Below are positions 21,092 to 61,870 of a DNA stretch of 64,000 nt, in pieces. Origin of the DNA: an uncultured Enterobacterales bacterium (GTDB lineage Bacteria > Myxococcota_A > UBA796 > JAFGLY01); contig CAYZVO010000002.1 in the NCBI GenBank assembly GCA_964481655.1, positions 21,746-85,745 on the forward strand. The letters are read 5' to 3'. A program made the position numbers and the translations under genes. Below the pieces are notes generated by a model that made no database searches, was not told the origin of the DNA, and saw nothing but the letters and a program-made list of their open reading frames with translations. How positions within the stretch are numbered: the stretch's first letter is position 1; the number at the start of each line of letters is the position of its first letter.

Positions 21092-21150
21092 GTATCGGGG
21101 GCCACGAGGCGGCGTTGGCGATCGCGGGTTCGAGGCCGATAGAAGCCCGT

Positions 21151-36613: not shown

Positions 36614-38920
<2,307 letters not shown>

Positions 38921-39047
38921 GGCACGTCTCCCACGGTGGTGTCAGGGGTCCCACGAGGGAGTATGTCACAGCACCGCGGTTCCGTCCTGGAACCCGCGCG
39001 GACCGGCCTGATGGACGTTATCCTGGGGGGCCGCCACGAGGTGAACG

Positions 39048-45057: not shown

Positions 45058-46670
45058 CACATCGACACATCTCACCGCTGTTGCTCGCGCTCTGCGTGGG
45101 CTGCGGAGACGGCTGCCGCGGCGACGACACCGCCCCTGTGGATGACAGCTCCGAAGAGACGGGCGACCCCACCGTCGACGCCGACAACGACGGCTACCCC
45201 GCCTCCGAGGACTGCGACGACGAGGACCCCGACGTCAACCCCGGCGCCGAGGAGATCTGCGGCAACGGCGTGGACGACGACTGCGACGGCACCGCCAACG
45301 ACTGCGGCCTGTCCGGGCTGGTCCCCCTGAGCGAAGCCGACGTGGCCATCACGGGAGCCGCCGAGAGCGACTGGGCCGGCCGCTCCTTCGACCTGGCCGG
45401 TGACCACGACGGCGACGGGTCCCTGGATCTGGTCGTCGGTGGCCGCCACCACACCAGCGACGACGGCGAGGTCGGCGCGGTCTTCGTGATGTCCGGCCCC
45501 TTCGAGGCCGACGGCTCGATGGCCGACGCCACCGCGACCTGGCTCGGCAGCAGCGACATGGGCGAGGCCGGCGACTCGGTGGCCAACGGCTGCGACCTGT
45601 CCGGCGACGGCGCCGCGGACATCATCGTCGGCGCCCGCTCCCACGACGCCGTGGGCGAAGCCGCGGGCGCGGTCTACCTCATCTTCGACCCCGGCAGCGG
45701 CGAGCAGATCCTGGACGACGCCGCGGTCACCATCTTCCCCACCGACGCCCAGCACCGCCTCGGCGACGCGGTGGGCTGCGCCGGTGATCCCAACGACGAC
45801 GGCGTGGCCGACCTGGTGGTCGCCGCACCCGGCGCCCAGAACTCCGACGAGGACGTCTCGGGCATGGCCTACCTGTTCGAGGGGCCCATCGCCGAGGGCG
45901 AGCTCACCACCGCGGACGCCGACGCGACCTTCCGCGGCGTGGCCCACGGCGACTACCTGGGTCGCTGGGTCGACGGCGGCCACGACCTCGACGGTGACGG
46001 GCTCACCGACCTGGTGCTGACCGCCTTCAAGGCCGGCGTGGCCGGCGTGGACGCCGGTGAGGTCTACGGAGTGCTCGCACCCTTCGACGGTGAGATCGAT
46101 CTGATGGAGGCCGACTGGGTCATCAGCGGCGAGCGCCCCGGCGACTGGCTGGGCACCCGCGCCGAGGTGGCGGGGGACATCGACGGTGACGGCACCCCGG
46201 ACCTGCTCATCGGCGCCGACGGCCACGACCAGGGCGGCAACAACGCCGGCGCCGGCTACTTCGTGCCCGGCCCCCCCGCGGGCCAGGCCCTGGTGCAGCA
46301 CGCCGCGGCGGCCACCATCACGGGGATGGCGGCCGAGGACTACACCGGCCTGACCGTCACCGGCACCGGTGACCTGGATGGCGACGGCAGCGACGACTTC
46401 GCCGTCGGCGCCTTCCGCTCCGACGCGGGCCAGCTCAACGCCGGGCTGCTGGCGGTGTTCTACGACGCCATCGAAGGCGTGGTCGGCATCGACACCGCCG
46501 ATGTGGAGATCATCGGCACCCAGGCCGACGACCAGGCCGGCTTCCACGCCATGGCGACCGGCGACATCAGCGGCGACGGCTGGCCCGACATCGCCTTGAG
46601 CGCCCCCGCAGAGGACACGGGCGGGCGCGACTCCGGGGCTATCTACCTGGTGTTCGGCTCGGGCTGGTAG
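45054..46670 (+). CDS. Lipoprotein with MopE-type motif and integrin-alpha-like FG-GAP propeller (paralog of 41996)
   Basis: Lipobox CVGC, DADNDGY...DCDDEDPDVNPGAEEICGNGVDDDCDG, seven FG-GAP blades. Confidence 0.88.
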   Translation: MTHRHISPLLLALCVGCGDGCRGDDTAPVDDSSEETGDPTVDADNDGYPASEDCDDEDPDVNPGAEEICGNGVDDDCDGTANDCGLSGLVPLSEADVAITGAAESDWAGRSFDLAGDHDGDGSLDLVVGGRHHTSDDGEVGAVFVMSGPFEADGSMADATATWLGSSDMGEAGDSVANGCDLSGDGAADIIVGARSHDAVGEAAGAVYLIFDPGSGEQILDDAAVTIFPTDAQHRLGDAVGCAGDPNDDGVADLVVAAPGAQNSDEDVSGMAYLFEGPIAEGELTTADADATFRGVAHGDYLGRWVDGGHDLDGDGLTDLVLTAFKAGVAGVDAGEVYGVLAPFDGEIDLMEADWVISGERPGDWLGTRAEVAGDIDGDGTPDLLIGADGHDQGGNNAGAGYFVPGPPAGQALVQHAAAATITGMAAEDYTGLTVTGTGDLDGDGSDDFAVGAFRSDAGQLNAGLLAVFYDAIEGVVGIDTADVEIIGTQADDQAGFHAMATGDISGDGWPDIALSAPAEDTGGRDSGAIYLVFGSGW

Positions 46671-47256
46671 CGGGCTGGTCGCCCACGCGCCTGAAGCGCA
46701 GCTCGAAGCTGAAGGGCACCGGCAGGTACTCGCTCTCGTAGGTGACCCTGGAGATGATGGTGACCCCGTCGGGCTGCAGCTGGAAGGTCTGGGTTCGATC
46801 GCCCAGCTCGTTGGCGAAGGTCTGCACCAGCTCATCGTCGGTCACCAGGGCCTGGCTGACCGTGTAGGTCGCGTCTCCCTGCAGGGCGTCCCAGCTGAAG
46901 GGGCTGCCGTCGAGGCTGGCGGTGAACAGGTGGGTGCTCCCGCAGGAGTAGCGCAGCCCCTGCTCTTCGAGCTCGAACACCGGCAGCGGACAGTAGACCG
47001 TCACGCTGCGCAGCACCGGCCGCATGACCGGTCGGAGCATGGGGTTCATGGCCTGGGCGACCCGCTCGATGCCTTCCTCGATGCTGGCGACGTCGGACTC
47101 CTTGTCCACCTGCACGAAGCGCCCCTGGATGGGCGCCCCGTCGCCGGCGGAGCCGGTCTGGGCCTCGGCGTGACCCGCCGCGACGGCGGCCAGCACCAGC
47201 GCCGTACAGACGCGGGCGGTGGTCACGGGGCGATGGCGGCGGGTGCGCATGTCCAT
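46639..47256 (-). CDS. Hypothetical secreted protein
   Basis: Signal peptide and coding-like composition. Its 3' end overlaps the FG-GAP gene end by 32 bp. Confidence 0.65.
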   Translation of the reverse strand: MDMRTRRHRPVTTARVCTALVLAAVAAGHAEAQTGSAGDGAPIQGRFVQVDKESDVASIEEGIERVAQAMNPMLRPVMRPVLRSVTVYCPLPVFELEEQGLRYSCGSTHLFTASLDGSPFSWDALQGDATYTVSQALVTDDELVQTFANELGDRTQTFQLQPDGVTIISRVTYESEYLPVPFSFELRFRRVGDQPATSPSRTPGR

Positions 47257-47336
47257 ATGCTTGCATCGGTCGTTTCCACCGTCCTGTTGAGGAGGCCGAT
47301 GGTGACGACTCGAGACAGCAGGCCCTCAGCGGGGCG

Positions 47337-48686
47337 TCAGGCCAGCAGCTCGTCCAGCTCCCGGACCGTGATGTCCAGCTCCCGCGCGGTGCGCAGCTTG
47401 TCGCCGTCGTAGTACTTGAGCGCCCGCTGCACGTGGTCCCGCTCGACCTCGCGCAGGGGCTCGGGGGCGTCGAGGGGGTCGGGCGAGCCGGTCTCGATGC
47501 GGTCCCGGATCCACTGGGGCAGGGCGTCCACGGTGATCCAGTCGCCGTCGTCGGTGGCCACCAGCGAGGCCTTCACGATGCTGCGCAGCTCCTGGACGTT
47601 GTCGGGGAAGTCGTAGTGAGACAACGCCTCGAGGTAGCCTGTGTCGAAGCCTTGGACCTTGCGACCGAAGCGCTTGCTGTACCTGGCCAGGAAGTGGTCC
47701 GACAGCAGGGGGATGTCGCCGCGCCGCTCCCGCAGGGGCGGGATCACGATGTTGTTCACCATCAGGTGATACAACAGGTCCCGATCGAAGCGCCCTTTGT
47801 ATTCCTTGGCGGTCAGCTCCTTGGTGGACGACACGACGAAGCGGGCTTCGGAGGTGCGGATCTCGGTGCTCGCCTCGCGGTAGTACTCTCCCTCCTGAAG
47901 CACGCGACGCAGTCTCACCTGCATCGGCATCGTGAGCTTGTCGATGTTGTCCAGGAACAGGGTGCCGTCGCCGGCGTGCTCGAGGAAGCCGGGGCGCTCC
48001 TCGTCGCGGCCACCCCAGCGGCGGGCCTGGCCGAAGAAGTCGGCCGGGAACTGGCCCGGGTCCGCGGCGGCGGCGTCCACGGTGATACATGCTTCGCGGC
48101 AGCGGGGGCTGGCCTTGTGGATCGCGCGGGCCAGGGCCTCCTTGCCCGTGCCGCGCTCCCCGGAGATGAACACGGCCATGTCCGAGCGCGCCATGCGCTC
48201 GGCGGTGTGCAGCACCCGGATCATCGCGGCGTCCTGGGTGGGCACGTGCTCGAAGGCCGCCGGGTCGGCCAGGTCCTCGCGCTTGAGCTCCGTGGGCAGC
48301 TGCTGGATGGAGCGGTTCATGGCGTGGTGCTGCAGGGCGCTCTCGAGCACCTCGACCAGCTGCTCGTCCTCCACCGGCTTCACCAGGTAGTCGAAGGCGC
48401 CGAGCTTCATGGCCTTGACCGCCAGCTCCACGTCGGGCACGCCGGTGAGGACCACCACGGGGATGTCCATGTCCTGGGCCCGCAGGCTGCGCAGGATGTC
48501 CATGCCGCTGACGTCGGGCATGTCCATGTCCAGCAGCATGATGTCGTTGGGGCTGCGGTCGAGGGTCTCGAGCACGCGGCGCGAGTCGTTGATGACCGTC
48601 ACCTCGAAGCGGTCGGTCTGCATCAGGGCGACCATCAGGTAGTTGGTCACCGCGACGTCGTCGTCCACGATAAGGATGCGCTTCAT
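47337..48686 (-). CDS. NtrC-family response regulator (REC-AAA-Fis HTH) with degenerate sigma54-activator motifs
   Basis: REC domain ILIVDDD...LLDMDMP...KP; GERGTGKE; PPLRERRGDIP; terminal HTH. GAFTGA is absent. Confidence 0.9.
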   Translation of the reverse strand: MKRILIVDDDVAVTNYLMVALMQTDRFEVTVINDSRRVLETLDRSPNDIMLLDMDMPDVSGMDILRSLRAQDMDIPVVVLTGVPDVELAVKAMKLGAFDYLVKPVEDEQLVEVLESALQHHAMNRSIQQLPTELKREDLADPAAFEHVPTQDAAMIRVLHTAERMARSDMAVFISGERGTGKEALARAIHKASPRCREACITVDAAAADPGQFPADFFGQARRWGGRDEERPGFLEHAGDGTLFLDNIDKLTMPMQVRLRRVLQEGEYYREASTEIRTSEARFVVSSTKELTAKEYKGRFDRDLLYHLMVNNIVIPPLRERRGDIPLLSDHFLARYSKRFGRKVQGFDTGYLEALSHYDFPDNVQELRSIVKASLVATDDGDWITVDALPQWIRDRIETGSPDPLDAPEPLREVERDHVQRALKYYDGDKLRTARELDITVRELDELLA

Positions 48687-50707
48687 CGGGTCCTCCTCCC
48701 GTTCCGTTCACGGCCGTCGTCCAGGGGCAGGCGCACGGTGAAGGCCGTGCCCACGCCGACGGTGCTGTCCACGTCGATGCTGCCGCCGTGCTCTTCGATG
48801 ATCCGGTGGGTGATGGCCAGCCCCAGGCCCGTGCCACCGCGGGCCCGCTTGGTGGTGTAGAAGGGGTCGAAGATCTGACGCAGGGTCTGGGGCGTCATGC
48901 CCTTGCCGTCGTCGCGGACCTCCAGCACGGCGTGGCCGTCCTGGACCCGGGTGCGCACCAGGATGGTGCCCCGGCGCTCGTCGGGCATGGCCTGGCTGGC
49001 GTTGACCACCAGGTTGACCAGGATCTGTTCGATCTTCTGGGAGTTCCCGGTGAAGGACGGGATGTCGGGCTCGAGATCCAGCTCCAGATCGGCCCGCATG
49101 TGGACCTCGTTGTGGACCAGGCGGGTGCAGGCCTCGATCAGCGTGTTGATGTCCACGCAGTCGATGAGCTCACCCTCGTCCCGCCGGGCGAAGCGCTTGA
49201 GCCCCTCGACGATGCCCTTGATGCGCTCGGACCCGTGCGCCATGTCCTGGACCAGGGTCATGATGTGGTCCCGGAAGAACGTGTAGGGCAGCCGTGCCAC
49301 GCGGAAGTCGGGGTTGGCCGCGGCGTGGGCGTCGACGATGGGGAGCATGTCCTCGAGCGCCTGACGCATGATCTTGATGTTTCCCCGGATGAACTGGTTG
49401 GGGTTGTTGATCTCGTGGCCGATGCCGCTGACCAGCTGACCCAGGGAGGCGAGCTGATCGGCCTGGCGCAGCTGCTTCTCGTAGGTGCGCTCCAGGGTCA
49501 CGTCCCTGAAGAACTCCATGATGCCGCTGACGGCGTGGTTCTCGTCGTAGATGGGCAGGGCGTGGATCTCGAGGTAGCGGCCGTCTCGACGCAGCTCGTG
49601 GGTCACCGGCGCCTTGGTCTCCAGCACCATGGCCAGCCGGCAGTCCTCACAGGGGGCGGCGCGATCGAAGAACACCCGGTGACACACATCGCCCTCGACG
49701 CAGCCTTGCTTGTTGCTGGCCACGACGCGGCAGGACCTGTCGATCAGGGCGACGTCCTCGGGGATGCCTTGCATGATGGGTTCGATCCAGGACTTGGAGC
49801 GCTCCCAGCTCTTGCCCAGGCCCTCGATGTAGTTGTTGACGGTGTCCAGGCGATCCCGCAGCTCGGCCAGCTCCTGGGTGCGGCCCTGGATGACACCCTC
49901 CAGCTCGTTCAGGCGCTCTCGGTAGATCGACTCTTCTTTCTGCTTCGATTCCAGCCGGACGGACAGCTCCTTGCGCTCCAGCGCCAGGCTCACCAGCCGG
50001 CCGATCTGGTCGAGCATCTTCTGCTCTTCCGGCAGCCACTCGAGCTCCGGTGACACGTAGCTGACCCGGATCTCGCCACAGACCTGCCCGTTGACCACCA
50101 GCTCGGTCTGGATGCCGCAGCGGCCCTCACAGCAGTGGGGTTCCCGTCCGAAGTTCTCCCTCAGGTAGCGGCTGCACACCACGGCCTGGCCGGGGTGGCG
50201 CACACCGCGCGCCAGGATCGGTGGGAGCTTGTGGAAGAACTCGTCGATGCTGGTGGAGCGATCGGTCCAGTCGGCCACGGCGTACAGGCAGGACAGCTCG
50301 CGGATGCGGTCGCTCTGTTCGGAGGCCTCGAAGCCCTCGAGGGCGTCGGCCTGCGTGCCGTAGAACAGACACAGGCGTGTGTCACCCGCCTGGATCTCGT
50401 TGCAGCGCAGCGGCACGCGCACCCGCGGGGCGACCTGCGGGGAGAACACCACCACGACCTGATCGCCCTGCCTGGCCTGGCAGCGCCCCTGCTCGATGGT
50501 CTGCAGGCTCTGCTCGGTCAACACCTCTTCCAGCGGCCGCTCCATCAGGCCGAGGCGGTGGCGGCCGGCAACCCGCTGCAGGGGGAGGCTGGCGTGGACC
50601 ACCCGCTCGTCTTCGTCGAGGACGAGCAGGAAGTCGTAGTTCAGCTCGATCAGGTCGAAGACCTGTTGGGTGGTGACGCTCTCCTGGGCTGGGGTCGCCG
50701 CGCCCAT
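48683..50707 (-). CDS. Cytoplasmic PAS/GAF sensor histidine kinase (NtrB-like)
   Basis: GIGHEINNP, QILVNLVVNASQAM, DDGKGM, FDPFYTTK and GTGLGL. No TM segments. Confidence 0.92.
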   Translation of the reverse strand: MGAATPAQESVTTQQVFDLIELNYDFLLVLDEDERVVHASLPLQRVAGRHRLGLMERPLEEVLTEQSLQTIEQGRCQARQGDQVVVVFSPQVAPRVRVPLRCNEIQAGDTRLCLFYGTQADALEGFEASEQSDRIRELSCLYAVADWTDRSTSIDEFFHKLPPILARGVRHPGQAVVCSRYLRENFGREPHCCEGRCGIQTELVVNGQVCGEIRVSYVSPELEWLPEEQKMLDQIGRLVSLALERKELSVRLESKQKEESIYRERLNELEGVIQGRTQELAELRDRLDTVNNYIEGLGKSWERSKSWIEPIMQGIPEDVALIDRSCRVVASNKQGCVEGDVCHRVFFDRAAPCEDCRLAMVLETKAPVTHELRRDGRYLEIHALPIYDENHAVSGIMEFFRDVTLERTYEKQLRQADQLASLGQLVSGIGHEINNPNQFIRGNIKIMRQALEDMLPIVDAHAAANPDFRVARLPYTFFRDHIMTLVQDMAHGSERIKGIVEGLKRFARRDEGELIDCVDINTLIEACTRLVHNEVHMRADLELDLEPDIPSFTGNSQKIEQILVNLVVNASQAMPDERRGTILVRTRVQDGHAVLEVRDDGKGMTPQTLRQIFDPFYTTKRARGGTGLGLAITHRIIEEHGGSIDVDSTVGVGTAFTVRLPLDDGRERNGRRTR

Positions 50708-50710
50708 GGC

Positions 50711-53700
50711 CTAGCGCCCTCCGGGGCGCAGGTGGCCGATGCCGCGCTCGCGCATGGCGCGCTTGTAGCGGGCCGTGTGGGTGAGGGGCGGTGGGATCCG
50801 GCCGTGGCCAGGGCGGCCCTCGACCTCCACCGGGGTAGCGGGGGGAGGGGCGGGGCGCGCCTCGCCGCGGGTCCAGTACCAGGGCAGGTCCTCGCCCAGG
50901 ATCCGGCGGACCCGGGCGTCGATGGCGGCGTGCAGGCCGGCCCAGTCTTCAGGGAGATCGTCGATGCCCAGGGACGCGGCCAGACCCGCCAGCACCTGCC
51001 AGCCAGCCCGCCGCGCGGGCGGCGGGACCACGGGCGCGTAGTCCAGCAGCCGGCCCTCGAAGGAGCAGCGGGTGCCCTGGGACTCGAGCCAGGTGGAGCC
51101 TGGCAGCAGCACGTGGGCGAAGCGGGTGGTCTCGGTGTGGGTCCAGTCCATGGCCACCAGCAGCTCGAGGCCCTCGAGGCCCTTCGCGGTGCTGGGATGG
51201 GCGAGGGGATCCTCGCCGAGCACCACCGCCGCGCGCAGGCTGCCGCCCTCGATGCGTGAGCGCAGCTCGTCCATGCTGACGCCCTCGGCCGCGGGCTGGC
51301 GGCCCGGCAGGAACGAGGGGTGCACGCCGCACAGCTCGAGGCCTGCGGCGTTGGCGTGGACACGGGGCAGCAGCAGCTCGGCCTCGCGGCCCATGGCCCG
51401 CACCAGCGCCACCAGGTTGCCGATGGTCTCGAGATCGCCGGTGGCCTGGTCCTGAACCCGGTCGGGGGCGTGCACGAACACGGTGCGGTCGGCCTCGAAG
51501 ATCAGCTCGGCGATCTCGCGGATGTCGGCCTCTTCGACGCCGGCGAGCATGGCCGCGCCGGCGGCGCCGCCCTCGAGGCTGTCGAGCAGGGGCCTCAAGC
51601 CGTCCAGATCGGCGCCGTCGCGGTCGAGCCAGGCGTCCTCGAGCAGGGCCTGGGTGACCCCGCGCCACAGCTGCGTGGCCCGGCCGCGCATGGGATCGAC
51701 GGCCTTGGACGCCAGGGCCCGATCGGCCTGGTCGAGGGTGGAGTTGACCACCACCAGCTTGGCCCCCCGCTCACGCACGGCGGCGAGCACGCGGGTGGCC
51801 AGGACCAGGTGGTCGGTCTCGAGGGCCGTGTTGGTGCAGACGATGAGCTGTGCGTCGTCCAGGGAGCCGCGGTCGGCGGTGGAGGCGGTGTGCCCCAGGA
51901 TGGCGTCGAGCCGGTGGCTCTCCTGGCCGGTGGCCAGCATGGACAGGGAGCCCACATTGGCGGTGCCCAGGCCTTCTCGGGCGATGCGCGAGGCCAGCAG
52001 CAGCTCCTCGTTGGACAGCTCCGGGGAGGCGAAGACCGCCACCGAGTCGGGTCCGTGGCGCTCGACGATCTCGCCGAGGGCGCGGGCGGCGTGGGCCCAG
52101 GCCAGCTTGTGGTCGGCTCGGGTCCGGCTGTGGCCGACGCGGATCTCGGGGTGCACCACCCGCCGGGAGCGGTGGAAGAGCTCGTGGCCGAAGCGGCCGT
52201 ACTGACACAGCTTCGCCCCCGGCTCGGCGGGCGCGGCCAGCTCGTAGCGGCCGGGGCCGTAGATCTTCGCCTCGATGGCGCAACCCACCGAGCAGGCGCC
52301 GCAGTGGGTGCGGGCGGTGGTCTCGGGCAGGGACGCGCGGCCGGGGAAGGGGTGCTTCACGGTGAGCGCCGCGGTGGGGCAGGCGTCCACGCAGTTGCCG
52401 CAGGAGACGCAGTTGGTCTCGATGAGCGGGTCGTTCATGGCCGGCCGCATCTCGGTGCGGAAGCCGCGGTTGACCAGGCCCAGGGCCGCGATGGGCAGGA
52501 CCTTGGCGCAGGTGCGGATGCACTTGGAGCACAGCACGCACTTGTTGGGGTCGTAGACGATCCAGGGGTGGCGCTCGTCGATCTTGTGCTTGCGCACGGT
52601 GCCCTGGATGCCGCGGTGGTCGGCGCCGTAGACGTCGGCCCAGTGGCGCAGCTCGCAGTCGTGGGCGCGCACGCAGCCGCACTCGAGGCAGCGGCCACAC
52701 TCGTGCACGGCGTCCTCGGGCTCGAAGCCGGTGACGACCTCGTCGAAGCTGCCGGCGCGCTCGGCCACGCTGATGTGTTGCAGGTCCCGGCGGCGGGTCT
52801 CGGGGACTTCGCCCAGCTCCTGCTTGCCCGGGGGCGCCCAGTCGGCCTTGCGGGCGACGAAGCGGTCGGCGGGCACCGCGCCGCCCTCGATGTGGGCGAC
52901 GATGGCGGCGGCGGCCCGGCGGCCCTCGGCGATGGCGTCGATGACCACCGTCGGGCCTTCGTTGGTGGCGTCGCCACCCGCGAAGACGCCCGGCACGTTG
53001 GTGGCGCAGCTCTGCTCGTTCACCGCGATGGTGCCCCAGCGGGTCTGCTCGAGGGCCACGTCGCCCACGGTGTCCACGCCGTCGAGCACGGGGTTCTGGC
53101 CGATGGCCGAGACCGCGAGCTGGCAGGGGATGTCGAACTCGGAGCCCTCGATGGTGATGGGCCGCCGGCGGCCGGAGCCGTCGGGTTCACCCAGCTTCAT
53201 GCGCACGCAGCGCACGGCGGCGAGCAGCCCGTCCTCGTCCTTGCGGATGCCCACGGGGGCGACCAGCTCCATGATCTCGATGCCCTCGTCGATGCAGTCC
53301 TGGATCTCCAGGGGATCGGCGGGCATCTCGGCCTTGGTGCGCCGGTAGATCAGCAGCACCTTCTCGGCGCCGCAGCGCCAGGCGGTGCGGGCCACGTCCA
53401 TGGCGGTGTTGCCGCCACCCACCACCACCACGGTGCCCTGGACCGGGCTGGGGTCGGCGGCCTTGGCCTGCAGGAACTCGACGCCGCTCTCCACCCCGGG
53501 GGTGTCCAGCTCGCCCTCGACCCGCATGGGCTTGCCCGTCCAGGCGCCCACCGCCAGGAACACGGCGGCGTGCTGCTCGCGCAGGGTGTCCAGGCGGATG
53601 TCCCAGCCCACGCGCACGCCGGTGCGCAGCTCCGCGCCGACCTTGCAGATGTGATCGACCTCGAGGTCCAGCACATCGTCAGGCAGGCGGTAGGCGGGGA

Positions 53701-54403
53701 TGCCGTAGCGCAGCATGCCGCCGGGCTTGGGCATGGCCTCGTACAGCACCGAGCGGTAGCCGGCGCGGCCCAGGAACCAGGCGGCGGTCAAGCCAGCGGG
53801 ACCGGCGCCCACGATGCCGACCGTGGGGCCACCTTCCGGGGCGGCCTGCACCGGCAGGTCGTAGACCCCGGGCACGTCGGTGGCGTAGCGCTTGACGTGG
53901 TTGATGGCCACGGCCTCGTCCACGTCGGCGCGGCGGCACTCGAGCTCGCACTTGCGCACGCAGACCCTGCCGCAGACGGCGGGCATGGGGTTGGCGTCGC
54001 GGATGAGATCGACGGCCTGCTGGTCCAGGCCCATGTTCACCAGGGCCAGGTAGCCCTGGATGTCCACGTGGGCGGGGCAGGCGTCCATGCAGGGCGAGAC
54101 GCAGTCGGCGTAGTGGTTGGACAGCAGCAGTTCGAGGGCGGCCTTGCGGGACCGCAGCACCGTGTCGCTGCGGGTGTGCACGGACATGCCCTCGTTGACG
54201 CGGGTCGCGCAGGCGGGGACGAGGTTCCCGCGGCCTTCGAGCTCCACCACGCAGACGAAGCAGGAGCCGTAGGGCTCGAGGTCGGGGCTGTGACAGAGCG
54301 TGGGGATCGTGTCGAGCCCCTGGGCGTGCACGACCTCGAGGATGGTCTGGCCGCGCTCGGCCTGCACCGGCTGTCCGTTGATGGTCAGTGAGACGGTGTC
54401 CAT
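50711..54403 (-). CDS. Multidomain Fe-S flavoprotein: [2Fe-2S] + GltD-like FAD/NADP(H) module + 2x[4Fe-4S] + NuoG/Mo-bisPGD-like domain apparently lacking the cofactor ligand (NfnA/BfuA-like)
   Basis: CHSPDLEPYGSCFVC...C; PCMDACP...CGRVC; VGAGPAG; YGIPAYRL; VGGGNTAMD; YRRTKAEMP; CVLCSKC...CVSCGNC; HCGACSVGC...C; LLPGSTWLESQGT. Confidence 0.88.
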   Translation of the reverse strand: MDTVSLTINGQPVQAERGQTILEVVHAQGLDTIPTLCHSPDLEPYGSCFVCVVELEGRGNLVPACATRVNEGMSVHTRSDTVLRSRKAALELLLSNHYADCVSPCMDACPAHVDIQGYLALVNMGLDQQAVDLIRDANPMPAVCGRVCVRKCELECRRADVDEAVAINHVKRYATDVPGVYDLPVQAAPEGGPTVGIVGAGPAGLTAAWFLGRAGYRSVLYEAMPKPGGMLRYGIPAYRLPDDVLDLEVDHICKVGAELRTGVRVGWDIRLDTLREQHAAVFLAVGAWTGKPMRVEGELDTPGVESGVEFLQAKAADPSPVQGTVVVVGGGNTAMDVARTAWRCGAEKVLLIYRRTKAEMPADPLEIQDCIDEGIEIMELVAPVGIRKDEDGLLAAVRCVRMKLGEPDGSGRRRPITIEGSEFDIPCQLAVSAIGQNPVLDGVDTVGDVALEQTRWGTIAVNEQSCATNVPGVFAGGDATNEGPTVVIDAIAEGRRAAAAIVAHIEGGAVPADRFVARKADWAPPGKQELGEVPETRRRDLQHISVAERAGSFDEVVTGFEPEDAVHECGRCLECGCVRAHDCELRHWADVYGADHRGIQGTVRKHKIDERHPWIVYDPNKCVLCSKCIRTCAKVLPIAALGLVNRGFRTEMRPAMNDPLIETNCVSCGNCVDACPTAALTVKHPFPGRASLPETTARTHCGACSVGCAIEAKIYGPGRYELAAPAEPGAKLCQYGRFGHELFHRSRRVVHPEIRVGHSRTRADHKLAWAHAARALGEIVERHGPDSVAVFASPELSNEELLLASRIAREGLGTANVGSLSMLATGQESHRLDAILGHTASTADRGSLDDAQLIVCTNTALETDHLVLATRVLAAVRERGAKLVVVNSTLDQADRALASKAVDPMRGRATQLWRGVTQALLEDAWLDRDGADLDGLRPLLDSLEGGAAGAAMLAGVEEADIREIAELIFEADRTVFVHAPDRVQDQATGDLETIGNLVALVRAMGREAELLLPRVHANAAGLELCGVHPSFLPGRQPAAEGVSMDELRSRIEGGSLRAAVVLGEDPLAHPSTAKGLEGLELLVAMDWTHTETTRFAHVLLPGSTWLESQGTRCSFEGRLLDYAPVVPPPARRAGWQVLAGLAASLGIDDLPEDWAGLHAAIDARVRRILGEDLPWYWTRGEARPAPPPATPVEVEGRPGHGRIPPPLTHTARYKRAMRERGIGHLRPGGR

Positions 54404-54412
54404 GGCGGGCTC

Positions 54413-56191
54413 CTAGCGCTTGATGATGGCGCCGAAGTTGCAGCTGGAGATGCAGCGTCCGCACTGGACGCAGGTGTCGATGTCGATGACGTGGGCCTGC
54501 TTGCGATCGCCGGCGATGGCGTCCACGGGGCAGGCCCGGGCGCAGAGGGTGCAGCCGGTGCACAGCTCGGGCACCACCACGAAGTCCACCAGGGCCTCGC
54601 AGACCCCCGCGGGGCAGCGCTTCTCCACGATGTGGGCCCGGTAGTGGTCCTCGTAGTAGCGCAGGGTGGTCAGCACCGGGTTGGGCGCGGACTGCCCGAG
54701 GCCGCAGAGGCTCGCTTCTTTGATGCGATGGGCCAGCTCCGAGAGCCGCTCCAGGTCCTCGAGCTCACCCTCGCCGCGGCAGATGCGCTCCAGGATCTCG
54801 AGCATGCGCAGGGTGCCCACCCGGCAGAAGGTGCACTTCCCGCAGCTCTCGTCCTGGGTGAAGTTCAGGAAGAAGCGCGCGATGTCGACCATGCAGGTGG
54901 AGTCGTCCACCACCACCATGCCGCCGGAGCCCATGATGGCGCCGGTGGCCGGGATGTGCTCGAAGTCCACCGGGGTGTCCTGCTGGGCGGCGGGGATGCA
55001 GCCGCCGCTGGGGCCGCCCATCTGCACCGCCTCGAAGCGGCCGCCGTCCTTGATGCCGCCGCCGATCTCGAAGACCAACTCCTGGATCGTGGTGCCCATG
55101 GGGACCTCGGCCAGGCCACCGCGGGTCACCTTGCCGGCGAGGGCGAAGACCTTGGTGCCCTTGCTCTTCTCGGAGCCGATGGCGGCGTAGGCCTGCGGGC
55201 CGTTGCGCACGATCCAGGGGACGTTGGCGTAGGTCTCGACGTTGTTGTTGTTGGTGGGCTTGGCCCACAGCCCGGCCTCGGCGGGGAAGGGGGGCCGGAT
55301 GCGGGGCATGCCGCGCTCGCCCTCGATGGAGGCGAACAGGGCGGTCTCCTCGCCGCAGACGAAGGCGCCGGCGCCCTGCTTGATCTTGATGTCGAAGTGC
55401 TTGCCAGAGCCGAAGACGTCCCGGCCGAGGTAGCCCTTGTCCCGGGCGGCCGCGATGGCCAGCTCGAGGCGGTGGATGGCCAGGGGGTACTCGGCGCGGC
55501 AGTAGATGTAGCCGTACTCCGCACGGATGGCGTGACCGCAGATGATCATGCCCTCGAGCACGGCGTGGGGGTCGCCCTCGAGCACCGAGCGGTCCATGAA
55601 CGCGCCCGGGTCGCCCTCGTCGGCGTTGCAGACCACGTACTTCTTGTCGGCGTCGTAGCCGGCGCAGAAGCTCCACTTGAGCCCGGTGGGGAAGCCGGCG
55701 CCGCCGCGGCCGCGCAGGCCCGAGGCCTTCATGATGTCGATGACCTCGCCGGGCTCCAGCTCCCGCAGGGACCGCCGGGCGGCCTGGTAGCCGCCGCGGG
55801 CTTCGTAGTCACCGATGCACTCGGGATCGATCAGGCCGCAGTTGGCGAGCACGATGCGCTGCTGGGGATCCAGGAACGCGGCCTCGCTGCCGCCGGTGCG
55901 GCCTCGGGTGTCGATGCTCCAGGCCACGCGGTCTTCGAGGACCACATCGCCCATGACGTGGCGGGCGAAGATCTCGCCGGCCAGGTCGGGATCGACGTCG
56001 CCGTAGAGGGTGCGGGCGTCGCCCTGACGGATCTCCACCAGGGGCTCGCGGTAGCACATGCCGATGCAGCCGGTGATGCGCAGCCGGCAGCGCTCGGGGT
56101 GGGCCGCCGCGAGCGCCTCGAGGGCCTCGTAGGTGGCCTTGGCGCCCGCGGACAGGCCGCAGGTCCCCATTCCGACCAGGATGTCGATCAT
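54413..56191 (-). CDS. NADH-binding FMN subunit, HydB/NuoF-like with N-terminal thioredoxin-like and C-terminal 2x[4Fe-4S] domains
   Basis: SGLRGRGGAGFPTG, NADEGDPGAFMDR, GAGAFVCGEETAL, GGPSGGC, ESCGKCTFCRVG and CTGCTLC...CVQCGRC. ATG 56191 overlaps the upstream TGA. Confidence 0.92.
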   Translation of the reverse strand: MIDILVGMGTCGLSAGAKATYEALEALAAAHPERCRLRITGCIGMCYREPLVEIRQGDARTLYGDVDPDLAGEIFARHVMGDVVLEDRVAWSIDTRGRTGGSEAAFLDPQQRIVLANCGLIDPECIGDYEARGGYQAARRSLRELEPGEVIDIMKASGLRGRGGAGFPTGLKWSFCAGYDADKKYVVCNADEGDPGAFMDRSVLEGDPHAVLEGMIICGHAIRAEYGYIYCRAEYPLAIHRLELAIAAARDKGYLGRDVFGSGKHFDIKIKQGAGAFVCGEETALFASIEGERGMPRIRPPFPAEAGLWAKPTNNNNVETYANVPWIVRNGPQAYAAIGSEKSKGTKVFALAGKVTRGGLAEVPMGTTIQELVFEIGGGIKDGGRFEAVQMGGPSGGCIPAAQQDTPVDFEHIPATGAIMGSGGMVVVDDSTCMVDIARFFLNFTQDESCGKCTFCRVGTLRMLEILERICRGEGELEDLERLSELAHRIKEASLCGLGQSAPNPVLTTLRYYEDHYRAHIVEKRCPAGVCEALVDFVVVPELCTGCTLCARACPVDAIAGDRKQAHVIDIDTCVQCGRCISSCNFGAIIKR

Positions 56192-56682
56192 GACTGCACC
56201 TCGTGGGCGGCCTCGCGCTTGGCGGCTCGCCGAACCTTCTTGAGCAGCTTGCGCGCTGCGGCCGGGGTCAGGCGTCCGTGGGTCTCGTCGTCGATCATCA
56301 TCGCCGGCGCCAGCGAGCAGCAGCCCAGGCAGGCCACCGTGAACAGCGTGAAGAGGCCGTCCTCGCTGGTGCCACCCACCTCGATGCCCAGCTCGTCCTG
56401 GATGGCGTCCACCAGCGTGGAGGCCCCCTGGACGTGACAGGCGGTCCCGGTGCAGACCCGGATCTGGTGGCGACCCATGGGCTGCAGGCGGAACTGGCTG
56501 TAGAAGGTGATGACACCGTAGATGGTGCTCTCGGGGATGCTGGTCACCCCGGCGATGGTCTCGATGGCCCGCCGCGGGATGTAGCCGAAGTGGTCCTGGG
56601 CGGACTGCAGCAGGGGGATCAGCTCCCCCGGGCTGCCGTCGTAGCGCCAGAGTTCGAAGGGGAAGGACTCGGAGCCGCGCAT
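56188..56682 (-). CDS. [2Fe-2S] subunit, HydC/NuoE-like
   Basis: LIPLLQSAQDHFGY, VITFYSQF, VCTGTACH and ACLGCCSLAP. GGAGG RBS before ATG 56682. Confidence 0.92.
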   Translation of the reverse strand: MRGSESFPFELWRYDGSPGELIPLLQSAQDHFGYIPRRAIETIAGVTSIPESTIYGVITFYSQFRLQPMGRHQIRVCTGTACHVQGASTLVDAIQDELGIEVGGTSEDGLFTLFTVACLGCCSLAPAMMIDDETHGRLTPAAARKLLKKVRRAAKREAAHEVQS

Positions 56683-56737
56683 GGGCACCCTCCATTCGAA
56701 CCCGGCTCACGCCGGGTTCGACGCGGACTGTCGTGGT

Positions 56738-57730
56738 CTAGTCGTCGAGGAACTGGATGATGCGGGCCTGGCGGACGCGGAGCACGCCGTCGATCTCGTC
56801 GATCTTGCGCAGCACCTCGGGCACGCGGCCGACCGCACCCTGGCCGGTGACCATGGCCACCAGGCGGCCGCCGTCGTCGATGACGTCGCAGAAGATGACG
56901 TCGTCGATGAAGAACACCGTGGTGAAGACCTGCTGGATGGCCGACGGGTCGATGTCCACCATCAGGTAGCTGGCGGTGCCGCGCTGGCTGGTGCCCGTGA
57001 CGGCCTCGCCGCCGCGGATGGCGTCCCGGTAGCTCTTGACGAAGTCCTCGATGTCCCGGTCCAGCTTCGGGCGCTCCACCGACGAGACGGAGACCACCTC
57101 GATGCCGGCCATGGAGCCGACGGTCTGGAAGATCGTCTCGATGCCGGTGGCCGCGGGGGCCTGGACCAGGAGGATGACGTCCACGTCGCCGTGGACCGCG
57201 TGGCAGGAGTGCACGCCCGGCAGCTCCTGCAGCTCCCGGAAGATCTGGGCGCTGCGGGCTTCGTTGGTGATGCGGACCGTGAGGTAGGCGCTCATGGTCT
57301 CGGTGACGCTGGGGGCAGCCGCGCGCCGGGTGGTGGTGGTGGCCTCGCCGCGGGGCAGGCCCTCGAGGGCCTCGACCAGCTCGTGGACCTCGAAGGGCTT
57401 GTCCAGGAAGGCGGTGTTGGGCTCGGCCAGGGCGGTGGTCTCGAGGGTCTCGTCGCCGAAGCCGGTGATGACCACGGCCGGGAGGTCGGGGAAGTGGCTC
57501 TTGATGACCTTGAGGATCTTCAGGCCGTCGATGTCGGGCATGAAGATGTCGGTGACCAGGAAGTCGTACCCGTTGCCCTCGGCGCCGGCGCGCTCGAGCT
57601 CGTGCACGGCGGAGATGCCGTCCGGGCAGGCGACGACCTCGAAGCCGTGCTGGGTCAGACCGAAGATGAGGTTGCGGCGAATCTCGGGTTCGTCATCGAT
57701 GACGAGAACGCGGCCCTTGGTGTCTTCCAT
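56738..57730 (-). CDS. Response regulator with two C-terminal Lrp/AsnC ligand-binding (RAM)-like domains
   Basis: REC: VLVIDDE, LVTDIFMP, ITG, LDKPF. Then AYLTVRI...LPGVHSCHAVHGDVDVILLV and SYLMVDI...VLRKIDEIDGVLRV. GGAGG RBS. Confidence 0.8.
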   Translation of the reverse strand: MEDTKGRVLVIDDEPEIRRNLIFGLTQHGFEVVACPDGISAVHELERAGAEGNGYDFLVTDIFMPDIDGLKILKVIKSHFPDLPAVVITGFGDETLETTALAEPNTAFLDKPFEVHELVEALEGLPRGEATTTTRRAAAPSVTETMSAYLTVRITNEARSAQIFRELQELPGVHSCHAVHGDVDVILLVQAPAATGIETIFQTVGSMAGIEVVSVSSVERPKLDRDIEDFVKSYRDAIRGGEAVTGTSQRGTASYLMVDIDPSAIQQVFTTVFFIDDVIFCDVIDDGGRLVAMVTGQGAVGRVPEVLRKIDEIDGVLRVRQARIIQFLDD

Positions 57731-58045
57731 GGTGTCCTCCGAACGAGGGAGTGAGTGGGAGCCCCAATTGAACCGGTCCAGAGGGGACGCACCCATGCGA
57801 TCCGTCAGGTTGCGCCGGCCCTTTTGGGTGGTTCACAGGGCCCGTGAGAGGGGTCAGGGAGCCTGCCGGAAAGCCGCCTGTCGAAGATCTGTACACCCCC
57901 CTCGTCGCCCCGCGGTCCGTGAGCATCGAGGGACTCTTTCGGGGGTCGGCGCCCCGCCTGTGGTGGGCTCCCGGGCTCTCGGGGCCCACGCGCCATGACC
58001 TGTGCGACATGGCATCCGTCATGGTTCGCGGACTATGCTCGGCCC

Positions 58046-60964
58046 ATGCGTCCCCTGCGACCCTGGATCCCGACGGCGCTGTTGCTCGTCCTGCTGCTCG
58101 CGCTGACCGGTGGGAGCGTCTGGTTGCATCCCGCGACCCGGCAGCTCGGTAGCGGCGCCAGCGAGGGCCCGATCCACCTGTGGTCGCTGTGGGTGGCCGC
58201 CGAGGGCCTGTTCAGCTCCGGCCCGCTGCTGCGGATCGCGCCGGAGGTGGCCTTCCCGGATGGCTTCGCCGCCCACCTGATGGATCCAGTCAGCCTGCTG
58301 CTGTTCCTGCCCGGCTTCCTGCTCGGTGGCGGTGGTGCGGCCGGGGCCTCCCTCGGCTGGAACCTGCTGCACGCCGGCGCGGTGCTCATCGCGGGGCTGG
58401 GCGCCTACCGCCTGGCGCGGGTGCTGGACCCGGATCCCGACAGCTCACCCTGGACCGCGGCGCTGATGGTCGCCGGGGTGGCCGGCGGCAGCTTCCTGCT
58501 CTCCCATCCCTGGTTCGGGCGCACCGAGCTGCTGGCCCTGGTGCTCATGCCCCTCCACCTCGCGCTGCTGCTGCCCTGGGTGCGCGGCGACGGGGGCTGG
58601 CGGACGGGCCTGGGGGCCGGCCTGCTGCTCGGCGGTGTGGCCCTGGGGGGCGGCTACGCGGGGGTCTTCGCCCTGCTGCTCGAGCTGCCCCTGGGGCTGT
58701 GGCTGCTGGCTGTGTCCCGGCAGCGGCGGCGGGTCCTGGGGCGGCTGGCGCTGGTGGCCGGGATCGCGCTGCTGCTGGCTTCACCGGCGGTGCTGGCGCT
58801 GCTGGCCTATCCGCCCCTGTCCTTCGGCTCCTTGAGCGATCCTGCCCAGTTCACCGTGCCGTCGCTCACGCCGGGGCAGCTGGCCTGGGTCCTGCGCCTC
58901 GAGCGCCCTGGGGCGGGGGCGCTGTTGATGGACCAGCCGGTCTACCCGGGGGTGGTGCTGCTGGCCCTGGCGGGGATCGGCGCGGCGCTGCGGCCCCGCC
59001 GAGCGCTGCTGTGGCTGTTGCTGGGGCTGTGGCTGCTGGTGTTGGCCCTGGGGCGGGAGCTGGAGCTGGGTGGTGGCGAGGCCCTGCCCCTGCCCGCCGC
59101 CCTGCTGGCCTGGCTCGTGCCGGCGCTGGCCTACATCAAGTTCTGGAGCCGGCTGGGGATCCTCGTGCCCCTGCCCCTGGCGGTGGCCGCCGGCCTGGGC
59201 CTGGCCGCGATGCTGAGGCGCTGTCCCTCGCGGCTGCGGCCGGTGCTGGGGCTCGTGCTGGTGGCCGCGGTGCTGGCGGACCAGGCGACCTGGCCCCGGC
59301 CGTGGGCGCCGCGCCCGGCCTTCGAGGCGGCCATGCCGGCGGAGCTCGGCGCCACCATCGACGCGCTGCCTCCAGGCGCGCTGATGCACCTGCCCCTCGA
59401 GGTCCCCACGGCCGAGGGGCAGCTGCTCGAGACCGGCTTCTCGATCCTCTGGTCCCGGCAGCACGACCGGGCGGTGACCGCCACGCCGGCGGAGCATGGA
59501 GATCAGCTGCTCCAGCGCAGCAACCTGGCCCGCTTCGCGGTGAACCTCCAGGCGGGGCTCGCCAGCGGGGTGGCCACCAGCCCTGGGGATCTGGTGCGGC
59601 CGGGGGCCGACGGCGAGGCCAGCGCGCGGGAGGCCGGCTGCCTGCGCCGGGACGCCGCTGTGCTGGCCGAGCTGGGTCTGGGCGGGCTGGTGCTCCACAT
59701 CGACCGCCCTGGCGGGCCGGCGCTCGCGGCCGTCCTCGAGGACGCCCTGGGGGGCCCGACGGTCCGCGGTGACCGCCTGCTGGCCTGGGACCCCGCCGCG
59801 GTGACCCTGCGGGAGGGCGACGGGGCCTGCAGCCTGTTCGGCCTGCACCCGGTGGCCTCCGCTCGCCTCGCGGGCCTCGAAGAGGCCAGCACCCCCAGCG
59901 TGCTGCTGCTGGTGGTCCCCGACCCCGACGCCGGGGCCCTCGACGCCCTGCGCCGCCTCGCGGCACGCGGTGTGCGCTTCGAGGGGGCGCTGCGCAGCGA
60001 GGTCGACCTCGAGGCCGACCTGGAGGCGGTGCTGGACGGCGGCGGGCATCCCCTGCAGCGATCCCTGGCGGAGGCCGGCTACCTCGTTGCGGAGCCCGGT
60101 CGCTCCCGGGACAGCGGTGACACACCGGAGCCCGCCCAGATCATCTCCTGGTTGGCGGCCGCGCCCGACGGACCCTGGCTGGCCGCGGCGACGCTGCGGG
60201 GTGGAGGCGCCGAGCTGCCGGCCGTGCTGGACGCCGTGGACGCCATGGGCTCCGACGCGCCCATCACGGTCGTCGTGGCTGGCGCTCGGGGTGGCGGGCT
60301 GCCCGCCGCGGAGGCGCTGCGGGATCCCCAGCTGGCGGTGGAGCTCGTGGTCGCCGACCCGGGCCTGGGGGGCGGCTGGGTCGTGGACCGGCCCGTGCAG
60401 CTGTCGGACCTGGGGCCTACCCTCCGCGAGCGCGCGGGCCTCGAGCCCGGCAACGGCGCCCGCGCCCGCTCCCTGGTGCCCCAGCTGCGGGGGGACACGC
60501 CGCTGGTCAGCGGCCGGCCCATGCTCGTCGAGGCCCCGGACGGGGTGGCGCTGCGCACCCCCGGTCACAAGCTCATCGTCACCGACGAGGGGAGCCTGCT
60601 GTTCGACCTCGAGGCGGATCCCGGCGAGCTCCACGACCTCGCCGCCGAGCAGCCCGCGCTCCTGCAGCGGCTCACCCGTCAGCTCGAGGCGCTGCGCGAA
60701 CCGGCGGCGCTGCCCTCATCGCCGTCGGCCCCTGCGCCGGGCTCCGCCGGGCCCGCGCACCCCCTGGCGCGCCTCGCCGCCCTCGAGGACGAGCGCGCCG
60801 CGCTGCTGGCCGACATCGCCCAGCTCGAGGGGGCGGAGGGAGCCAGCGAGACGCAGGAGCTCGAGCGGCTTCGGAAGCGGCTGCATGCGCTGGACATCAA
60901 GATTCGCCCGCTGCTGAAGGCCCGCGAGGACGCGGGCGGGGGCGGGGCGCCGGGCCGGCGCTAG
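58046..60964 (+). CDS. Polytopic membrane protein (GT-C-like) fused to a degenerate sulfatase/alkaline-phosphatase-fold domain and coiled-coil tail
   Basis: About 12 TM helices, then ALRRLAARGVRFEGA, RPVQLSDLGPTL and LFDLEADPGELHDLA (sulfatase-like framework). Confidence 0.7.
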   Translation: MRPLRPWIPTALLLVLLLALTGGSVWLHPATRQLGSGASEGPIHLWSLWVAAEGLFSSGPLLRIAPEVAFPDGFAAHLMDPVSLLLFLPGFLLGGGGAAGASLGWNLLHAGAVLIAGLGAYRLARVLDPDPDSSPWTAALMVAGVAGGSFLLSHPWFGRTELLALVLMPLHLALLLPWVRGDGGWRTGLGAGLLLGGVALGGGYAGVFALLLELPLGLWLLAVSRQRRRVLGRLALVAGIALLLASPAVLALLAYPPLSFGSLSDPAQFTVPSLTPGQLAWVLRLERPGAGALLMDQPVYPGVVLLALAGIGAALRPRRALLWLLLGLWLLVLALGRELELGGGEALPLPAALLAWLVPALAYIKFWSRLGILVPLPLAVAAGLGLAAMLRRCPSRLRPVLGLVLVAAVLADQATWPRPWAPRPAFEAAMPAELGATIDALPPGALMHLPLEVPTAEGQLLETGFSILWSRQHDRAVTATPAEHGDQLLQRSNLARFAVNLQAGLASGVATSPGDLVRPGADGEASAREAGCLRRDAAVLAELGLGGLVLHIDRPGGPALAAVLEDALGGPTVRGDRLLAWDPAAVTLREGDGACSLFGLHPVASARLAGLEEASTPSVLLLVVPDPDAGALDALRRLAARGVRFEGALRSEVDLEADLEAVLDGGGHPLQRSLAEAGYLVAEPGRSRDSGDTPEPAQIISWLAAAPDGPWLAAATLRGGGAELPAVLDAVDAMGSDAPITVVVAGARGGGLPAAEALRDPQLAVELVVADPGLGGGWVVDRPVQLSDLGPTLRERAGLEPGNGARARSLVPQLRGDTPLVSGRPMLVEAPDGVALRTPGHKLIVTDEGSLLFDLEADPGELHDLAAEQPALLQRLTRQLEALREPAALPSSPSAPAPGSAGPAHPLARLAALEDERAALLADIAQLEGAEGASETQELERLRKRLHALDIKIRPLLKAREDAGGGGAPGRR

Positions 60965-61779: not shown

Positions 61780-61870
61780 CGTCTCGCTCCTGATTCGAGC
61801 GATCAACATACCGCCGCTCGGCGGTGGCTGACCACTGTGCTCAGCGCCTGCGGCCAGGTAAGCTCGATGG

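Follow-up and report, generated by a model that had tools for sequence, protein, structure and literature searches.

Which enzyme is encoded by the three tightly packed genes at positions 50711-56682, minus strand, of the 64,000-nucleotide stretch of DNA analysed here (contig CAYZVO010000002.1; hereafter the window, whose coordinates are used throughout)? The original prediction, made from the letters alone, described a HydABC-like operon and assigned it to the NfnABC type of the Bfu family; its coordinates turned out to be exact, and our comparison with the solved NfnABC and StnABC structures, subunit by subunit and domain by domain, agrees with that assignment. The genes, in the order nfnC-nfnB-nfnA, very probably encode a soluble flavin-based electron-bifurcating transhydrogenase of the NfnABC/StnABC (Nfn-Bfu) type, since the top PDB matches (subunits A and B), or three of the top four (subunit C), are the cognate subunits of three biochemically proven enzymes: Caldicellulosiruptor saccharolyticus NfnABC (PMC11829005), Sporomusa ovata StnABC (PMC10482914, first described in PMC7483475) and Thermococcus sibiricus NfnABC (PMC12018979; PMC9304861). 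This enzyme type is already known and structurally solved, with three cryo-electron microscopy structures and mutational work, and the locus adds no new chemistry to it.

The operon and its three subunits

56188-56682, minus strand: nfnC, NfnC/BfuC (StnA), NuoE-like subunit of 164 amino acids, with its ATG at 56682 preceded by GGAGG
54413-56191, minus strand: nfnB, NfnB/BfuB (StnB), NuoF/HydB-like bifurcating core of 592 amino acids
50711-54403, minus strand: nfnA, NfnA/BfuA (StnC), fusion subunit of 1230 amino acids

The nfnB ATG at 56191 overlaps the nfnC stop codon (ATGA) and 9 nt separate nfnB from nfnA, a translational coupling that indicates one complex. In the JGI annotation of an independent metagenome contig, the subunits have the same lengths as in the window. 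A longer GTG-started open reading frame (ORF; 54413-56710) was considered for the B subunit and rejected as a high-GC artefact, the true start being the ATG at 56191; the GC content of the window is 70-76% throughout, and GC at third codon positions (GC3, 0.86-0.96) picked out a minus-strand gene run from 57730 down to 46639.

The composition of the three proteins is that of an Nfn-Bfu enzyme. A NuoE-like, a NuoF/HydB-like and a large NuoG-type subunit are encoded together; an NfnL/GltD-like insert for flavin adenine dinucleotide (FAD) and NADPH follows the N-terminal [2Fe-2S] domain of the large subunit, with one of its two [4Fe-4S] clusters of the 3Cys+Lys kind; the C-terminal domain resembles formate dehydrogenase (Fdh) and NuoG and has neither a pterin site nor a catalytic Sec/Cys; and every site of the BfuBC core, namely the flavin mononucleotide (FMN)/NADH site and B1, C1, B3, B4, B2 and B5, could be traced by residue-level alignment.

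The bifurcating core, NfnB and NfnC

A neighbour-joining tree of NfnB, built with the window protein, 71 relatives from GTDB genomes and four references, placed the window and all the relatives, to which its median identity is 70.8%, in one clade with the four references outside. Conservation within this clade was read from alignments of 70-74 members per subunit.

NfnB matched the Complex1_51K (Nuo51 FMN, 1.3e-46), SLBB and NADH_4Fe-4S (2.3e-32) models of Pfam/NCBIfam and a C-terminal 2x[4Fe-4S] domain. The motifs that had been quoted for this subunit are all present: the thioredoxin-like Cys domain with GTCG/TGCIGMC (9-52), GDPGAFM within EGDPGAFM (192-199), GGPSGG within MGGPSGGC (391-398), H...CPAGVC within AHIVEKRCPAGVC (519-531), and two CxxCxxCxxxC stretches (544-584). 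Chain B of the C. saccharolyticus enzyme was the first PDB match (9bov_B, 2e-240), followed by 9n5u_B (9.4e-239) and 8oh5_B (2.1e-236), with the HydB chains of bifurcating hydrogenases ranking lower, and the NADH-contact loops GLRGRGGAGFP and TGAIMGSGG align exactly with those of C. saccharolyticus NfnB.

The metal-site residues of NfnB are invariant in the clade: the B1 [4Fe-4S] ligands C450, C453, C456 and C496, the eight Cys of the B3/B4 2x[4Fe-4S] ferredoxin-docking domain, H520, C526 and C531 of B2 (with C433 as the presumable fourth ligand) and C11, C42, C46 and E49 of B5 (3Cys+Glu), where an extra C35 is conserved in just 51%. The H...CPAGVC motif had been interpreted as the mark of an extra cluster; the motif itself stands, but the solved structures correct its reading as an Fe-S site, since B2 is a 3Cys+His zinc site and not an Fe-S cluster in the C. 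saccharolyticus and T. sibiricus NfnB structures (PMC11829005). The B5 occupant differs among the characterised enzymes, being a [2Fe-2S] cluster in Sporomusa but zinc, at a 3Cys+Glu site, in those of Caldicellulosiruptor and Thermococcus (PMC11829005, PMC12018979). Given this difference and the partial conservation of C35, the sequence of the window NfnB does not fix which of the two B5 would bind here, nor the metal at B2.

NfnC carries the 2Fe-2S_thioredx domain (8.6e-51), and its C1 [2Fe-2S] ligands C77, C82, C118 and C122 are invariant among 70 clade members. Its first PDB match was the T. sibiricus chain 9n5u_C (1.5e-49), then 8oh5_A (1.3e-45), the NiFe-hydrogenase HydC chain 7T2R_C, and 9bov_C (1.2e-43).

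The large subunit NfnA

From its N-terminus, NfnA consists of a [2Fe-2S] domain (1-79), an NfnL/GltD-like module (~100-510) with sites for two [4Fe-4S] clusters, FAD and NADPH, a 4-Cys cluster (572-583), a 2x[4Fe-4S] region (622-675), and an Fdh/NuoG-like domain (~700-1150) with one [4Fe-4S] site (701-733) and without a pterin site, followed by an 80-residue tail. The GltD-like FAD module with an NADPH-type YRR motif that had been predicted in this subunit was recovered by Pfam (Fer4_20, 1.7e-17; Pyr_redox_2, 1.3e-29), along with Fer2_4, Fer4_Nqo3 and Molybdopterin (6.4e-20). The best NCBIfam match, over residues 1-634, was PRK12814, a model named for a putative NADPH-dependent glutamate synthase small subunit and probably representing the SfrB type. 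In the PDB, 9bov_A (chain A of 9BOV/9BP5) matched residues 4-1147 at 3.7e-219, ahead of 8oh5_C (2.5e-193) and 9n5u_A (4.6e-160).

The Cys for seven clusters, one [2Fe-2S] and six [4Fe-4S], are all kept. Among 74 clade sequences, C37, C48, C51 and C65 of the [2Fe-2S] site and C101, C105, C109, C148, C152 and C156 of the GltD-type clusters are invariant, as are, in the clade, C572, C575, C577 and C583 of the 4-Cys cluster, all eight Cys of the 2x[4Fe-4S] region and C701, C704, C708 and C733 of the FS0-type cluster. The same holds for K171, which corresponds to the essential K170 of S. ovata, for the equivalent of R239, for YRR353-355 (IYRRT, 352-356) and for GGGNTAMD.

E. coli FdhH (from NC_000913) served as the reference for an alignment of the C-terminal domain. 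The FS0 cysteines align, and the Sec140-His141 position of FdhH is occupied by Ala-Thr, in line with the earlier statement that neither Cys nor Sec stands at the formate dehydrogenase position; the RGQNNVQG motif is degenerate. The pterin-cap domain (domain IV, FdhH ~540-715) is missing and PF01568 found no match in NfnA, in agreement with the description of this end of the protein as an apparently cofactor-less NuoG/Mo-bisPGD scaffold, and the Fdh-alpha model TIGR01591 gave a partial match of 166 bits, against a cut-off of 666. An [FeFe]-hydrogenase HydA, also considered, was rejected: a search of NfnA for the L1-L3 H-cluster motifs found none, as had been predicted, PF02906 (Fe_hyd_lg_C) gave no match, and the NCBIfam hydrogenase models match residues 4-105 only.

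Two positions in this clade differ from the characterised enzymes. C114 of S. ovata and C. saccharolyticus lies in the second sphere of the FAD-proximal cluster, and mutating it halves the activity. The window has Ile115 instead, and of 74 clade members 68 carry Ala, Val or Ile at this position and 3 carry Cys; Ile143 of C. saccharolyticus is replaced by Cys144, invariant in the clade. Val or Ile at C114 was previously noted in some homologues by Kumar et al. (PMC10482914), so the change in the clade is variation within the family.

Comparison with characterised systems

Like the window enzyme, C. saccharolyticus NfnABC (PDB 9BOV/9BP5; PMC11829005), the top PDB match for window A and B with an NfnB identity of 60.6%, has three subunits, and the domain order of its NfnA (N-terminal, NfnL-like and Fdh/NuoG-like domains) is identical to that of the window. 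Both enzymes share the Lys-ligated [4Fe-4S] by the FAD, the NADH loops, the 3Cys+His B2 site and the 3Cys+Glu B5 site, and Li et al. described an incomplete and empty pterin site in the Fdh/NuoG-like domain of the C. saccharolyticus protein (PMC11829005). The window NfnA is 52 residues longer, its operon has, unlike the C. saccharolyticus one, three signalling genes alongside, and the hosts contrast, a thermophilic strict anaerobe in one case and a marine organism of 72% GC bearing ctaA/ctaB in the other.

S. ovata StnABC (PDB 8OH5/8OH9; PMC7483475, PMC10482914) has the same architecture and cofactor motifs, with K170, R239 and YRR kept in the window and 58.7% identity between StnB and NfnB. 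The stn genes of this acetogen adjoin the Wood-Ljungdahl cluster (PMC7483475), whereas the window offers no such context. T. sibiricus NfnABC and T. litoralis NsoABC (PDB 9N5U; PMC9304861, PMC12018979) contain the same BfuBC core and NfnL-like module, and the T. sibiricus enzyme is the top match for the C subunit (NfnB identity 58.9%). The Thermococcus A subunit is shorter (955-963 amino acids), with a partial Fdh-like domain and one cluster fewer; the window NfnA is instead of the long bacterial type and has the full set of seven.

Bifurcating [FeFe]- and [NiFe]-hydrogenases, HydABC(SL) (PDB 7Q4V, 8A6T, 7P5H, 7T2R), are homologous in BfuB, BfuC and the N-terminal cluster domain of BfuA, and A. 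mobile NiFe-HydB is 56.4% identical to NfnB, but the window has neither an H-cluster domain nor NiFe subunits, and its third substrate site is the NADP(H)/FAD module. SfrAB of G. sulfurreducens likewise combines a GltD-like NADPH/FAD protein with a pterin-less NuoG/Fdh-like one, although as two separate proteins without NuoE/NuoF-like partners (PMC7483475). In the window these modules are fused in a single protein of 1230 amino acids and BfuB and BfuC are co-encoded as a full core, and we rejected an SfrAB-type NADPH oxidoreductase.

About 8000 database homologues share the NfnA architecture, and the Nfn-Bfu family is large and mostly unannotated. Many of the JGI homologues bear the public name 'formate dehydrogenase major subunit' which, judged by sequence, is wrong for this family.

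Proposed mechanism

Homology, domain order and the conservation of all ligands are established here, and from them we infer that the cofactor sites are occupied and that the enzyme bifurcates according to the reaction 2 NADPH + NAD+ + 2 Fd(ox) <-> 2 NADP+ + NADH + 2 Fd(red), where Fd is ferredoxin. The nucleotide-dependent reductions that define this type, those of NAD+ and ferredoxin, depend on each other and go along with the oxidation of NADPH, and its quaternary form is a tetramer of heterotrimers joined through the large subunit. If the window enzyme works as the solved homologues do, NfnA would bind NADP(H) at the FAD of its GltD/NfnL-like insert, and electrons would pass from the FAD to the adjacent Lys-ligated [4Fe-4S] (C109, C148, C152, K171), along the NfnA cluster chain and on to the B1-FMN-C1 'flavobicluster' of NfnB and NfnC. 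There they would be split, or in reverse merged, between NAD(H), stacking on the FMN, and ferredoxin, which would dock at the C-terminal 2x[4Fe-4S] domain of NfnB (B3/B4). The Fdh/NuoG-like domain would be a cofactor-less scaffold, probably for assembly; the Fdh-like domain of the characterised enzyme, with its two side-branch clusters, was described as a structural remnant needed for assembly (PMC10482914). For the characterised enzymes, the physiological role is described as making NADPH from NADH and reduced ferredoxin (PMC12018979). The same direction is likely here, and in vivo it would provide NADPH for biosynthetic needs when oxygen is low or the cells ferment.

A conserved cassette of regulatory genes

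The operon is flanked on the same strand by signalling genes:

56738-57730, minus strand: response regulator of 330 amino acids, first gene of the cassette, with a Shine-Dalgarno-preceded ATG at 57730 and a JGI call of 330 amino acids too
48683-50707, minus strand: soluble PAS-PAS histidine kinase of 674 amino acids (Pfam HATPase_c, 1.3e-28; PAS_4, 6.4e-8)
47337-48686, minus strand: NtrC-family response regulator of 449 amino acids with receiver (REC), AAA+ and HTH_8 domains (Sigma54_activat, 7.5e-36; Response_reg, 2e-25; HTH_8, 1.9e-5)
46639-47256, minus strand: 205-residue protein with a hydrophobic, signal-peptide-like N-terminus, the last gene on the strand

From the upstream regulator to the NtrC-like gene, whose start overlaps the kinase stop, the intergenic distances are 55, -4, 9, 3 and -4 nt. 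The ORFs 45072-46835 and 46832-47266, both minus strand and initially taken for downstream genes, were discarded as spurious antisense frames of FG-GAP genes.

Using tblastn, we surveyed the six proteins of the cassette in 80 related loci from GTDB species genomes. The upstream regulator precedes nfnC in all 66 loci with enough flank, and the kinase and NtrC-like regulator follow nfnCBA in 39 of 51, being directly adjacent in 30. This cassette spans at least eight phyla, in lineages that include Eisenbacteria, Krumholzibacteriota, Fermentibacteria, Aegiribacteria, Sabulitectum, Planctomycetota, Brocadiia, Verrucomicrobiota, Spirochaetales, Acidobacteriota, Elusimicrobia and 'Deltaproteobacteria', and the nearest GTDB genome (79% NfnA identity) has the same one. 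The enzyme had been described as embedded in its own signalling operon; signalling genes do flank it, yet the arrangement is not particular to this organism. In some loci genes are inserted between nfnA and the kinase (M48 peptidase, IS200 transposase, ABC transporter, flotillin, radical SAM), with no common functional clue. The 205-residue protein, which gave no Pfam or NCBIfam match and no tblastn match in the 80 loci, lies outside the conserved cassette.

The upstream regulator has a receiver domain (Response_reg, 8.8e-21) and an AsnC_trans_reg match (1.2e-7) but no DNA-binding domain. An AlphaFold2 model from a 35-sequence alignment (predicted local distance difference test, pLDDT, 66.5; a single-sequence model was poor, pLDDT 59) showed REC followed by two beta-alpha-beta-beta-alpha-beta units resembling RAM/AsnC ligand-binding domains. 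Foldseek against the PDB retrieved receiver domains only, and BLASTP found no mutual similarity between the two C-terminal units. The family, REC plus tandem RAM/NapD-like, has 793 database matches of ~328-330 amino acids, with no functional name.

No hydrophobic segment was found in the kinase. Its second PAS domain (PAS_4) contains C342-x10-C353-x2-C356, invariant in 49 sequences, and C140, within a conserved 'ERIKELxCLYxVAEWIE', is conserved in 96% of them; the PAS segment had no informative relative in the PDB. The PAS domains of NreB kinases bind Fe-S through CX2CX11CX2C or CX2CX11C (PMC13478379), and on the Cys pattern and these precedents the kinase is a plausible candidate sensor of redox state, oxygen or metal (Fe-S).

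The NtrC-like regulator retains Walker A/B and HTH_8, but the GAFTGA loop is absent from it and from all 42 cassette homologues, replaced by 'ARRWGG' in the window and by 'FFGQARxWSG' as the family sequence. It is therefore probably not a sigma-54 activator, and these regulators look like members of a sigma-54-independent AAA+ family. As the missing GAFTGA would lead one to expect, a sigma-54 scan of the whole window (TGGCAC-N5-TTGCW, up to 2 mismatches) gave 15 matches, against 24 expected, none of them upstream of the operon. Scans for GG-N10-GC in the upstream and internal regions of the 80 related loci revealed no conserved site, and sigma-70 promoter and terminator scans of 46400-58100 gave nothing above shuffled expectation. 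In one related locus (L010, 11882-11897), with no kinase/regulator pair within its flank, a perfect TGGCAC-N5-TTGCA lies just downstream of nfnA.

We found no description of the regulatory trio or of the Cys swap of the clade in the cited Nfn and Stn papers, and regard both as leads, not demonstrated functions. A tentative scenario, which we hold to be possible but less probable than not, is that of a horizontally spread six-gene 'self-regulated transhydrogenase cassette', in which the tri-Cys PAS domain of the kinase (Fe-S or metal) would report on oxygen or the redox state, the RAM domains would report a metabolite, and together they would switch the oxygen-sensitive enzyme on only when needed; the change at C114 and Cys144 would retune the FAD-side cluster.

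Host and neighbouring genes

Two genes elsewhere on the strand bear on the lifestyle of the host:

30125-31048, minus strand: COX15/CtaA heme A synthase, ~20 kb from the operon
29238-30212, minus strand: UbiA-family prenyltransferase, probable CtaB (heme O synthase), adjoining COX15/CtaA

Heme A synthesis had been attributed to this organism, and both genes are indeed on the same contig; the pair implies a heme-A-containing terminal oxidase, and the host probably respires oxygen. Linkage to the operon is supported by a JGI contig of 54,874 nt, which has just 6.9 kb on the regulator side of nfnA, hence extends ~44 kb toward ctaA, and shows the gene order of the window for its first 10 kb, and by short assembly pieces from two runs that cover 29,000-58,500 evenly at 8-12x. 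Contigs of two marine metagenome runs are almost identical to the sequence, which also has a weak presence in runs from estuary and seawater. A Myxococcota-like organism is suggested by the Ser/Thr kinases, the FG-GAP/MopE repeat proteins and the GC content of 72%.

Further features of the window were recorded. A cluster of large FG-GAP repeat proteins, two with MopE-type metal-binding motifs, occupies 36614-46670, which also holds proteins of 983 and 469 amino acids without family match; assembly depth rises 50- to 200-fold at 38.3-39.0, 41.6-42.3 and 44.9-45.6 kb, pointing to repeats common to many other sequences in the sample. Divergent from the cassette, a 989-residue ORF (57995-60964, plus strand) lies in a region of 76% GC and an AT skew of -0.37; it matched no Pfam family, and its only NCBIfam match was a sub-threshold choline-sulfatase (E 9.6e-5, 21 bits against a cut-off of 433). 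The PhnD-like periplasmic binding protein gene at 60961-61905 (minus strand) has an in-frame TAG at 61411-61413, its halves matching PF12974 positions 4-118 and 137-238, and is either a pseudogene or affected by a sequencing error. A full-length DUF3095 protein (E = 2.8e-106) is encoded at 21115-22320 (plus strand).

Points against the assignment and alternative explanations

Several observations weigh against the Nfn-Bfu assignment. NfnB is only 59-61% identical to characterised NfnB/StnB and 56% to NiFe-hydrogenase HydB, values so close that the third substrate does not follow from the B subunit by itself. In the tree, the enzyme sits in a monophyletic clade apart from all characterised members, the functionally important Cys of S. 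ovata is Ile here, together with a new invariant Cys144, and the window contains no ferredoxin or ferredoxin-reducing enzyme. The heme A synthesis genes of the host fit poorly with an oxygen-sensitive enzyme unless this is tightly regulated, and three metatranscriptome runs of the same study contained 0% of the operon k-mers, although these runs were small (123-175 Mb) and the result is uninformative.

Among the alternatives, the one that survives best, improbable as we consider it, is an NADPH-linked oxidoreductase of the same architecture that does not bifurcate, has another acceptor (polysulfide or sulfur, Fe(III) or dyes, or some other partner) and takes NAD(H) merely as an alternative donor. 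It was through such activities that the Nso and SfrAB homologues first became known, T. litoralis NsoABC with polysulfide and sulfur and SfrAB with Fe(III) and dyes (PMC7483475), the separate clade leaves the window apart from all proven bifurcators, and the dead-end clusters of the Fdh-like domain, an electron overflow pool in the speculation of Li et al. (PMC11829005), are kept and invariant. However, the bifurcating BfuBC core is intact (C-terminal 2x[4Fe-4S], B2, N-terminal domain and C1), Kremp et al. considered that Nso itself may act as a transhydrogenase (PMC7483475), and the T. sibiricus enzyme, which is Nso-like, proved to be a genuine Nfn-Bfu (PMC9304861).

We think it quite unlikely that the operon was acquired horizontally and now decays or stays silent in an aerobic host that does not make the enzyme. 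The missing transcripts and the heme A genes would fit such a remnant, but the RNA runs were small and uninformative, the reading frames are intact, their GC3 (0.93-0.96) resembles that of the remaining contig, no ligand residue is lost, and relatives at 73-81% identity keep the whole cassette. As for an NAD(P)+-dependent formate dehydrogenase, the public A-subunit name and the partial Molybdopterin and TIGR01591 matches speak for it, but Ala-Thr in place of Sec-His, the degenerate RGQNNVQG, the missing cap, the low TIGR01591 score and the pterin-free C. saccharolyticus and S. ovata structures (PMC11829005, PMC10482914) make it barely conceivable.

Implications for the Nfn-Bfu family

With the Nfn-Bfu transhydrogenase as the preferred reading, the value of this locus is modest and contextual. 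For a large clade, the widespread misleading names 'formate dehydrogenase major subunit' and 'NuoF' can be corrected. Surveys of Stn/Nfn-Bfu enzymes reported mainly Firmicutes, with some Proteobacteria, Synergistetes and Euryarchaeota (PMC7483475, PMC9304861), and the range now widens past the Firmicutes, Synergistetes and Euryarchaeota of the literature to Eisenbacteria, Krumholzibacteriota, Fermentibacteria, Planctomycetota, Verrucomicrobiota, Spirochaetales, Acidobacteriota, Elusimicrobia and a marine high-GC lineage. The new points are the marine, probably oxygen-respiring host, which places a ferredoxin-linked enzyme, bifurcating by homology, in a genome that also makes heme A, and the regulator set that travels with the enzyme across many phyla. 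This conserved and dedicated trio, which would control the enzyme it flanks, offers a handle on the cellular control of a bifurcating transhydrogenase, and a self-regulated cassette, if true, would explain how the enzyme persists in a heme-A-making marine bacterium.

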